Source: a virus (Duplodnaviria; Heunggongvirae; Uroviricota; Caudoviricetes). Taken from it: a DNA stretch of 19,209 nt. Position 1 is the stretch's first letter; every line of letters begins with the position of its first letter. The stretch is from positions 1 to 19,209 of the IMG/VR virus record IMGVR_UViG_2684622670_000013. One strand, given 5' to 3'. Position numbers and translations under genes: made by a program. Positions 6,135 through 7,906 of the stretch are shown one piece after another. Under the pieces are notes generated by a model. That model was not told the origin of the DNA and did not search any database. It was given only the letters and a program-made list of their open reading frames with translations.

Positions 6135-7906
6135 TTATCAATGAGTTGGCCTACAAGGTCACAATTAAGGCCGATGAATTCCTGAATGGAAAACGGAAAG
6201 TAAAGCAGGAAGCACAAGACCTTAAAAACGAAATAGAGAGATCTTCATCTGCGATAGAAAGGTCAACAATCTCCTCAATGTCCAAAACGGCTAAGGAGAC
6301 CGACAAAGCTGCTGTTGCAATGAAAGGGTTGACTGCTTCATTTAATGGTTTTTTGGGGCTTTCGACACGCTTTGTGGCTGTTGGCGGCGTGTTGACTGCC
6401 GTAGCCATTGGCATTCATCGTGCATTTGAAAGTACTTCGGAGTCAATTGTAAGAGCCAGTAATATGGGGAGAATGCTTGGAACAAGCGCCAGTAACGTTC
6501 TTGGTACTCAGTATGGATTCTCCCGAATTGGTCAGAACGGCGGCGCGTTCCTTGGTGCACAGATGAGCGCCAGGATGGCGCTTGCCAATATAGAAGACCC
6601 AACAATTTTCGGCGGACTTACACCGGAGGCTCAGAATTTACTAACAACTGGAGCGAGAACAGGCATTGATATTAGTAATCTTGGAGGTAAATCAGAAGAT
6701 GCTCTGGCGGAATTTCAGAAATATGGGAAGAACCATAACGAGAAACAGTTAATGCAAGTGCTTTCTGCTTTTGGTTATGACCCTAATCTTGCCGGGGATA
6801 TTAAAAGCGGAAAAGCTGTGCAGATGGTATCTGAGGAAGAAAAACGATGGCAGATGACTAAAGAGCAGGAAGAAGCACAGCGCAACATTCTTGCTACGAC
6901 TAAAGCCCTTGACTCGCAATTTGCTCAGGTTAAACAAGAATTAATGGCTACATTTGGCCCTGAAGTGCTTAAAGCAGAACAGGAGTTTTTAGAGTGGCTG
7001 AAAAACAACAAGGGTGACATTGTTGGGTTCTTCAGGAACCTGAGTACAGGTATTGATGGTTTTGTTAAAGCCGTTGGTGGCGCTGGAAACGCATTGGGCA
7101 TTCTTGCTGCCATGGCTCTTCTTAGCGGCAAGGGGTTAGGAAGCAAGCTGGGCTTAATCGGTACGATTGGTGTTTTGGGGCAGATGGTACAAGACCAGTA
7201 TAAAGATGTTCCTGATGAGATGCGGCCATTCGCATTTCAGCAGCATTGGCTGGAAAGGCTCATTGGGCTGGATTATGACGATCCAAATAAAGAGATTCCT
7301 CCTAACAAAAATGGTGTCAACAGGCCTGACAGAAACAATAACCCATTAAATCTTAAGGCTACTGGAAACAGAAGAAGAGACAAGGACGGATTTGCTCAAT
7401 ATTTCGACCCAGAAGAGGGCTGGGAGGCCGCTAGGAATCAACTGACTCTATACTACAAAAGAGATAAGCTTGATACATTGCAAGGGATAATAAGCAAGTG
7501 GGCTCCATCATCAGAAAACAACACAAAGGCGTATATTGACCAAGTTTCTAAGTCTATGGGCGTTGGTGCCAATGATAAGCTAAACCTCTCAGATCCAGAG
7601 GTTATGGCAAAACTTAGCGCCTATATGGCTAGGCATGAAGGTTATCCAGATTGGAAGCGGGGTCTTGATTATGGTAACCCAACGAAAAATAGCAATGCCG
7701 CGTACTACCAAACTCAGCAAAGATTGGCTAATGGATCTGCAAACCAATCCTATGCCCAGAGCGTTGTTAACAATTACAACAGCCAGCACATAGGAGAGGT
7801 AAAGGTAATTGCCAAAACGGATCAATCCTCAAAACTAACCGAAGGATTTAAGGAGTTGAATCGCAGATCATCAGTAAATCAGGCATTTTCAAGTGCAGTG
7901 CCTTAG
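6131..7906 (+). CDS. Tail tape measure protein
   Basis: 591 aa, with a predicted helical, low-complexity N-terminal two-thirds containing a hydrophobic Gly/Ala-rich segment, located downstream of the chaperone pair. A distinct C-terminal module (NRPDRNNNPLNLK...WAPSSENNTKAYI...HEGYPDW) is present. Confidence 0.82.
   Translation: MIINELAYKVTIKADEFLNGKRKVKQEAQDLKNEIERSSSAIERSTISSMSKTAKETDKAAVAMKGLTASFNGFLGLSTRFVAVGGVLTAVAIGIHRAFESTSESIVRASNMGRMLGTSASNVLGTQYGFSRIGQNGGAFLGAQMSARMALANIEDPTIFGGLTPEAQNLLTTGARTGIDISNLGGKSEDALAEFQKYGKNHNEKQLMQVLSAFGYDPNLAGDIKSGKAVQMVSEEEKRWQMTKEQEEAQRNILATTKALDSQFAQVKQELMATFGPEVLKAEQEFLEWLKNNKGDIVGFFRNLSTGIDGFVKAVGGAGNALGILAAMALLSGKGLGSKLGLIGTIGVLGQMVQDQYKDVPDEMRPFAFQQHWLERLIGLDYDDPNKEIPPNKNGVNRPDRNNNPLNLKATGNRRRDKDGFAQYFDPEEGWEAARNQLTLYYKRDKLDTLQGIISKWAPSSENNTKAYIDQVSKSMGVGANDKLNLSDPEVMAKLSAYMARHEGYPDWKRGLDYGNPTKNSNAAYYQTQQRLANGSANQSYAQSVVNNYNSQHIGEVKVIAKTDQSSKLTEGFKELNRRSSVNQAFSSAVP

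Follow-up and report, generated by a model that had tools for sequence, protein, structure and literature searches.

An Enc34-type peptidoglycan hydrolase domain, predicted to act at entry, in an exchangeable cassette of a prophage tape measure protein

What does a compact, globular segment do near the end of a protein expected to act as a molecular ruler? The question is raised by a 19,209-nucleotide stretch of Caudoviricetes DNA (IMG/VR record IMGVR_UViG_2684622670_000013, positions 1 to 19,209; hereafter the window), in which an open reading frame (ORF) at 6131..7906 (+) encodes a tail protein of 591 residues. A first-pass annotation, made from the letters alone, had singled out the segment encoded at 7300-7700 (residues ~390-523), and all the peptide strings that it quoted occur in the translation of this ORF. 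Our conclusion, which we hold to be probable, is that the ORF encodes the tape measure of a temperate phage with an E217/Pa193-like contractile tail, present here as an E. coli prophage, and that this protein carries, ~75 residues before its C-terminus, an Enc34-type peptidoglycan glycosidase that would be borne by the virion and act at entry.

We compared the protein with the sequences of the PDB by phmmer, and two entries matched it over residues 395-520. The matches were 9VVP_L, named 'Gp29' (E 9e-13), and 7Q47_A, the Hafnia phage Enc34 endolysin's catalytic domain (E 1.9e-10). A tblastn search with the domain matched 573 phage records, the Chivirus endolysins being 36-38% identical to it. 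AlphaFold2 predicted an all-helical fold that is superimposable on 7Q47, with a predicted local distance difference test score (pLDDT) above 90 over residues ~401-505, and a profile of the domain matched 20,090 cluster representatives (clusters at 50% identity) at E<=1e-3 among 1.8 billion proteins. The earlier impression of a compact globular segment is thus borne out, and the picture is clearly not one of a disordered stretch without matches or conservation beyond close relatives. We place the domain at residues 398-515 (118 residues; 7322..7675, +) and assign it to the Enc34 type (PHA02564), in which an all-helical fold is what is left of the alpha-lobe of lysozyme and which is apparently distant kin of GH73 and GH23. 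Cernooka et al. 2022 (PMC8943055) showed that the Enc34 domain, in the form of ORF39deltaC, lyses cells of E. coli, P. aeruginosa and H. alvei whose outer membrane has been permeabilised; that it is an N-acetylglucosaminidase was proposed by the same authors (PMC8943055). Homology and the structural model together predict that the domain in the window is most likely a peptidoglycan glycosidase, and so the cell-wall-active function that the first-pass annotation had thought possible is now the predicted one.

The familiar lytic transglycosylase label did not fit. An SLT/GH23 identity (PF01464) was rejected because the window protein and the proteins P0069, P0061 and P0120 had no Pfam or NCBIfam match, whereas P0053, a relative described below, does match SLT. 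Pfam-A and NCBIfam scans of both the whole protein and the domain gave nothing usable, two Pfam matches (E >0.5) being dismissed as noise, and no GH23 structure was found among the significant fold matches of the domain model. Homologues 41% identical to the window protein bear the NCBI name 'lytic transglycosylase domain-containing'; this too was set aside, as the NCBIfam scan gives no model match.

We then compared the putative active site across two alignments, one of 46 diverse family sequences and one of 32 full-length tape measure homologues down to 45% identity. The HMMER alignment equates W457, Y468 and E503 of the window protein with W79, Y95 and E131 of Enc34 (SEQRES numbering is offset by one). 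In Enc34, Glu131 superimposes on the catalytic Glu of the compared enzymes, and Trp79 and Tyr95 fall on two aromatic residues that are important in them (PMC8943055). E503, the counterpart of the proposed catalytic Glu131 (codon at 7637..7639, +), is invariant in all 46 family sequences, as are P459 and N463; Y468 is kept in 45 of them, and at position 457 a W is found in 40 and a Y in the other 6. Y468 and W457 are presumed to position the substrate. W457, P459, N463 and Y468 all lie within the motif WAPSSENNTKAY (residues 457-468; 7499..7534, +), while the motif RNNNPLN (residues 401-407; 7331..7351, +) retains its R, its three N, its P and its final N in 45/46. More generally, the RNNNPxN and SENNT..Y motifs are nearly invariant across the 46 sequences, and the active-site and motif residues are also fixed across the 32 tape measure homologues.

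Further information came from the way in which the domain is exchanged. P0053, an E. coli protein of 623 residues, is identical to the window protein at 337 of its first 340 positions, then continues as unrelated sequence with a PF01464 SLT domain, and over its last 75 residues is again 35% identical. At the DNA level, the window and the P0053 locus (L003) are 98.4% identical over 3062-7149; the similarity ends in a Gly-rich hydrophobic segment and resumes at 10142. A second, cleaner case involves two Enc34-type alleles. The P0001/P0002 comparison (L007) counts 4 mismatches over residues 1-362 and 51 over residues 363-507, and residues 508-591 have none; the differences spare all catalytic and motif residues. 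Against the L007/P0002 allele, the exchanged patch of the window spans the domain (7211..7630, +; ~420 nucleotides) and has ~60-70% DNA identity between flanks that are ~99% identical. Three cassette states occur on ~99% identical flanks: two Enc34-type alleles (~60-70% DNA identity) and an SLT domain.

We assembled 75 related loci, 8 from species-representative genomes and 67 from viral contigs, the viral-contig scan being the one relied on. Among the loci with a tape measure ORF, 27 carry the Enc34 type and most others the SLT type, and both types are found where the N-terminal part is 99%, ~75% or ~45% identical to that of the window. Judged by these alignments, the lytic module is a recombining cassette that has been exchanged repeatedly. 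The Enc34-type domain is swapped with an SLT enzyme, the commoner lytic module, in near-identical proteins, and the two unrelated folds can evidently replace each other in this scaffold, which lends indirect support to an enzymatic role. We regard the cassette exchange as the most instructive aspect of the finding: the locus is a clean natural case of module exchange within a structural gene, with junctions that can be mapped to the nucleotide, and it shows two unrelated, putatively wall-degrading folds in what is presumably the same job on the same scaffold.

The ORF that hosts the cassette matched PHROG families that fit a lytic tape measure protein: phrog_873 (E 6e-291), which carries the label 'endolysin', phrog_2013, 'lytic tail protein' (E 5e-47), and phrog_2276, 'tail length tape measure protein' (E 9e-32). 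Its N-terminal part (residues 1-340; 6131..7150, +) is 99% identical to that of SLT-type tape measures. The helical character that the first-pass annotation had given to the region upstream of the domain holds as a prediction and at low confidence only: in a full-length AlphaFold2 model built with the 32 homologues (mean pLDDT 41, confident only in the lysin domain), DSSP assigned residues 1-330 as mostly helical, with pLDDT <50. A Kyte-Doolittle scan detected two hydrophobic segments, the first at residues 73-100 (6347..6430, +) and the second, Gly-rich, at residues 310-353 (7058..7189, +), the latter containing the recombination junction with the SLT allele (nucleotides 7149/7150). A channel-forming role, which had also been suggested for residues 390-520, was rejected, since this segment is hydrophilic with an enzyme-like fold and the hydrophobic Gly-rich segments, which might take that role, lie upstream of it. 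A linker of low pLDDT (residues 354-397; 7190..7321, +), containing RPFAFQQHWLERLIGLDY, which is kept among Enc34-type tape measures, leads into the lysin domain. Behind the domain comes a tail of 76 residues (516-591; 7676..7906, +), with a predicted helix at 565-587 and 35% identity to SLT-type tape measures; its conserved ending, ..AFSSAV, is common to the Enc34-type and SLT-type alleles. The module is thus near the C-terminal end, as had been proposed, but does not form the very C-terminus. By analogy with residues 840-858 of Pa193 gp41 (PMC11456595), we infer that this tail may anchor the protein to the tail tip.

When would such an enzyme work? That tape measures and ejection proteins carry embedded peptidoglycan hydrolases is well known (TM4, T5, P1 Sit, T7 gp16, Pa193 gp41). 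The Enc34-type domain is itself characterised, with a solved structure, and the PHROG families and PDB 9VVP already imply that it occurs in tail or ejected proteins. By analogy with these systems, the domain most likely acts in opening the bacterial wall during infection. In the mechanism that we propose, modelled as a whole on T7 gp16, P1 Sit, the tape measures of TM4 and T5, and Pa193 gp41, the C-terminal tail of a trimeric tape measure would be held at the tail tip of the virion. Sheath contraction would expel the tip into the periplasm together with the C-terminal portion of the protein, the lysin domain being among the first parts out. There the domain would fold or become exposed and cut glycan strands locally, and this local cutting would let the tube and the DNA conduit pass the cell wall. 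A conduit through the inner membrane may be formed with the help of the hydrophobic, Gly-rich segments that lie upstream.

Several known systems resemble this arrangement in part. One is 9VVP Gp29, a gp16-like internal virion (ejectosome) protein of T7-like Kayfunavirus phages that is 99% identical to the products of genes annotated 'DNA ejectosome component': here too the domain belongs to a protein that leaves the virion for the cell envelope, but Gp29 is a podovirus core protein of 1295 residues with the domain at its extreme N-terminus and an unrelated remainder. The lytic transglycosylase of T7 gp16 sits where Gp29 has its Enc34-type domain. We searched the literature for 9VVP and found no describing paper. 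In the D6 phage protein orf40 (1260 residues), whose annotation likens it to P1 sit, the domain lies at ~687-818, 45% identical to that of the window, and there is no Pfam SLT match; like the window protein, orf40 is a tail-lumen protein of a contractile-tailed phage, but it is twice as long and otherwise unrelated. P1 Sit, the structural injection transglycosylase, itself carries an SLT-type domain. SLT-type tape measures (P0053, those of Pa193/E217-like phages, and those of the Edwardsiella myophages GF-2 and Edno5) occupy the same slot, keep the hydrophobic segments as well as the C-terminal tail, and reach up to 99% identity in the N-terminal part; they differ in that their enzyme is PF01464 (GH23), which has no detectable sequence similarity to the window domain. 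Other tape measures use wall-degrading modules at DNA injection, such as the Rpf-like motif of mycobacteriophage TM4 and the peptidase of T5 Pb2; the principle is the same, while enzyme families and host envelopes differ. Finally, Enc34 ORF39 (7Q47, PHA02564) and M4Lys of Salmonella phage BSPM4 are endolysins that stand alone, end in a membrane domain of two helices and are encoded in a lysis cassette, whereas the window domain is internal to a 591-residue tail protein, presumably acts from outside at entry, and lacks the long alpha1-alpha2 and alpha3-alpha4 loop insertions that the HMMER alignment shows.

A number of points weigh against this assignment. The roles of Glu131, Tyr95 and Trp79 in Enc34 were assigned by superposition and not by mutagenesis (PMC8943055). 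The muralytic role of the tape-measure-embedded copies is predicted only, and the structure used for comparison is itself a prediction. Outside the domain the full-length AlphaFold2 model is uninformative, so that the helical ruler and the C-terminal anchoring stand as predictions. Iglesias et al. 2024 (PMC11456595) report that the last 19 residues of Pa193 gp41 are helices bound to the tail tip, and they assign a putative transglycosylase domain (491-582) to this tape measure protein; phmmer against the PDB sequences found no similarity to it, and the analogy consequently rests on gene order and on the Pfam families of the neighboring genes. Lastly, the prophage copy in the window may not make virions, as an IS66-family transposase interrupts a head-tail gene.

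This last point opens the alternative that the prophage is defective and the gene an inactive relic in it, which has kept its sequence but has no present function. We consider it unlikely, though worth taking seriously. The IS66-family transposase gene (TnpC-like, 508 residues; 31-1557, +), whose GC content of 0.57 differs from the ~0.45 of the prophage, adjoins the module, and homology to intact prophages starts only at 1588, ~250 nucleotides into the DUF4054/E217_gp27 head-tail gene. Since that gene is interrupted beside the IS66 element, the prophage may be defective, and an HNH gene inserted at 2551-3061 points the same way. Yet the tape measure ORF keeps its full length and shares 98-99% identity with the copies of prophages that are apparently complete, and the window ends inside the insertion sequence, so a simple insertion with the prophage continuing beyond it is possible. 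The relic scenario, moreover, bears on this copy only and not on the function of the domain.

Could the ORF instead encode not the length-determining tape measure but a separate tail-lumen or ejection lysin, broadly like T7 gp16 or P1 Sit? The protein is short (591 residues, with ~340 ahead of the cassette), its helical prediction is of low confidence, and it matches no Pfam tape measure family. The gene neighborhood makes this quite improbable. Upstream lie a neck terminator (PF23961; 3064-3579), a DUF3383/E217_gp31-type sheath (3576-5066), an E217_Gp32-type tube (5078-5512) and a tail assembly chaperone of 135 residues (5512..5919, +), which has a weak Pfam Phage_TAC_15 match and occupies the same place in all related loci. 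A slippery heptamer, T_TTT_TTA, read from the sequence with frames computed, lies in the chaperone frame at 5895..5901 (+). A -1 shift there would give read-through into a 72-codon extension of the chaperone (phrog_3976; 5916..6134, +, -1 frame), which is open to 6134. A chaperone frameshift of this G/GT type is typically found ahead of tape measure genes, an arrangement reportedly described by Xu et al. (2004). Downstream, beyond a variable cargo region (7915-11067), the baseplate genes begin at 11146 (Dit-like, plug, sheath initiator, baseplate J). The ORF is the sole long one between the tube and chaperone genes and the baseplate genes, and it has the frameshifting chaperone directly upstream and the baseplate genes downstream, the position expected of a tape measure gene. 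This order of terminator, sheath, tube, frameshifting chaperone, ORF and baseplate puts it in the tape measure slot of an E217/Pa193-type contractile tail. PHROG 2276 and PHROG 2013 both match, and the corresponding gene of Pa193, with the same Pfam-defined neighbors, encodes its tape measure protein (PMC11456595).

We also asked whether the domain might be a degenerate enzyme, a non-catalytic wall-binding or structural module that positions the tape measure in the periplasm or fits the tail tip. Enc34 crystals soaked with sugars showed no binding (PMC8943055), and the residues flanking the Glu vary, with H502 and G504 departing from the family majority. The conservation described above speaks against a degenerate enzyme: the proposed catalytic Glu is invariant, and the Tyr, the Trp and the SENN and RNNNPxN motifs are kept in endolysins and tape measures alike. 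In near-identical proteins, furthermore, the domain stands in for an SLT enzyme at the same place, which suggests an equivalent enzymatic role, and we judge a non-catalytic module to be very unlikely. That the domain serves when infection ends, whether as endolysin or as a helper of lysis, is the least credible proposal: its closest characterised relatives (Enc34 ORF39, M4Lys) are endolysins and phrog_873 is labelled 'endolysin', but the domain is embedded in a structural tail protein without signal or holin logic, homologous domains occur in ejected virion proteins, and the intact, near-identical prophage of E. coli WS4437A-1 (locus L001; NZ_CP035822, ~22-50 kb), whose copy of the gene is 98% identical in DNA, carries a separate and complete cassette of lambda-type holin, GH24 lysozyme and spanin genes, so that the tape-measure domain is not the phage's endolysin.

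Most matches of the domain profile are 135-250 residues long and many are 500-1300 residues long, with the domain at varied positions; one long homologue also bears a crAss-like phage cargo-protein domain. Neither Pfam nor NCBIfam has a model for the Enc34-type domain, and for a family this large the consequence is that lysins on phage particles are undercounted. Annotation gives the window protein and its near relatives the name 'hypothetical protein' and more distant ones that of 'lytic transglycosylase', a chemistry without any supporting model match in this analysis. Our literature search, within the library available to it, found no paper describing an Enc34-type domain in a tape measure, and Enc34 combined with tape measures or virion-associated proteins gave genome notes only. 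We therefore see the Enc34-type tape-measure lysin as an ordinary though under-annotated feature. Entry lysins acting on Gram-negative peptidoglycan are candidate antibacterials, and the 118-residue domain is a compact candidate. Two homologues had more than one match region: P0060, a tape measure of 768 residues (metagenomic/Logan), has two tandem copies of the domain, and P0168 (762 residues) has profile matches in four stretches.

The slot behind the tape measure gene has a character of its own. In the window it holds an ORF of 152 residues with a clear N-terminal signal peptide (7915-8373, -), which begins 9 nucleotides past the tape measure stop and has no Pfam or PHROG match. The same slot is occupied in relatives (L005, 6818-7264; L007, 4777-5235; L008, 4768-5217), and across ~75 loci it almost always encodes a small secreted or membrane protein; at least a dozen families, unrelated to one another, are represented. 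The pattern suggests a moron slot, which may serve lysogenic conversion or superinfection exclusion. A long shot would be that selection keeps the cassette diverse and that the agents are periplasmic inhibitors, encoded by prophages in this opposite-strand downstream slot and directed against the tape-measure lysins of incoming phages; this, if true, would be a superinfection-exclusion mechanism aimed at the entry lysin. We clustered the slot proteins of the ~75 loci and found no support for the ORF at 7915-8373 as a strict cognate inhibitor: its family stands beside Enc34-type and SLT-type tape measures equally (11 and 11). The 148-residue ORF in the L005 slot is not similar to it by BLASTP. 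A second downstream family stands beside Enc34-type tape measures only (11/11, the loci not being phylogenetically independent), so the idea keeps a low probability.

Other features of the window were also noted. Farther along the cargo region, between the tape measure and baseplate genes, an island at 8745-11067 encodes a phrog_585 protein (8745-9161, -), two Arc-like repressors (9172-9408 and 9456-9698, -), a phrog_7150 protein (9941-10144, +) and an anti-repressor of the Ant type (10381-11067, +), whose match to P22_AR_N is confined to the C-terminal part of the latter. The island resembles a P22 immI region lying within the tail module, and its content varies among near-identical prophages (L001, L003, L007). 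The free-standing HNH endonuclease gene upstream (2534-3067, +; phrog_99, E 2e-71) has the look of a homing endonuclease inserted between two genes of the tail, as nucleotides 2551-3061 are absent from the otherwise collinear L001 and L003; an Edwardsiella relative (L008) has an HNH_3 gene elsewhere, just before its tape measure. In L001 and L003, annotation pipelines call the chaperone and its -1 extension as two separate hypothetical genes. An SLT-type tape measure homologue in Edwardsiella piscicida (L009; CP084430, 3001-4782), 75% identical in its N-terminal part, lies beside primase (Toprim/DUF927) and SSB genes and not in a tail module, an odd setting, and may belong to a satellite or a rearranged element. 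An IntS-type tyrosine integrase gene (18052-19209, -) forms the right end of the window, and the WS4437A-1 prophage adjoins purK/purE.

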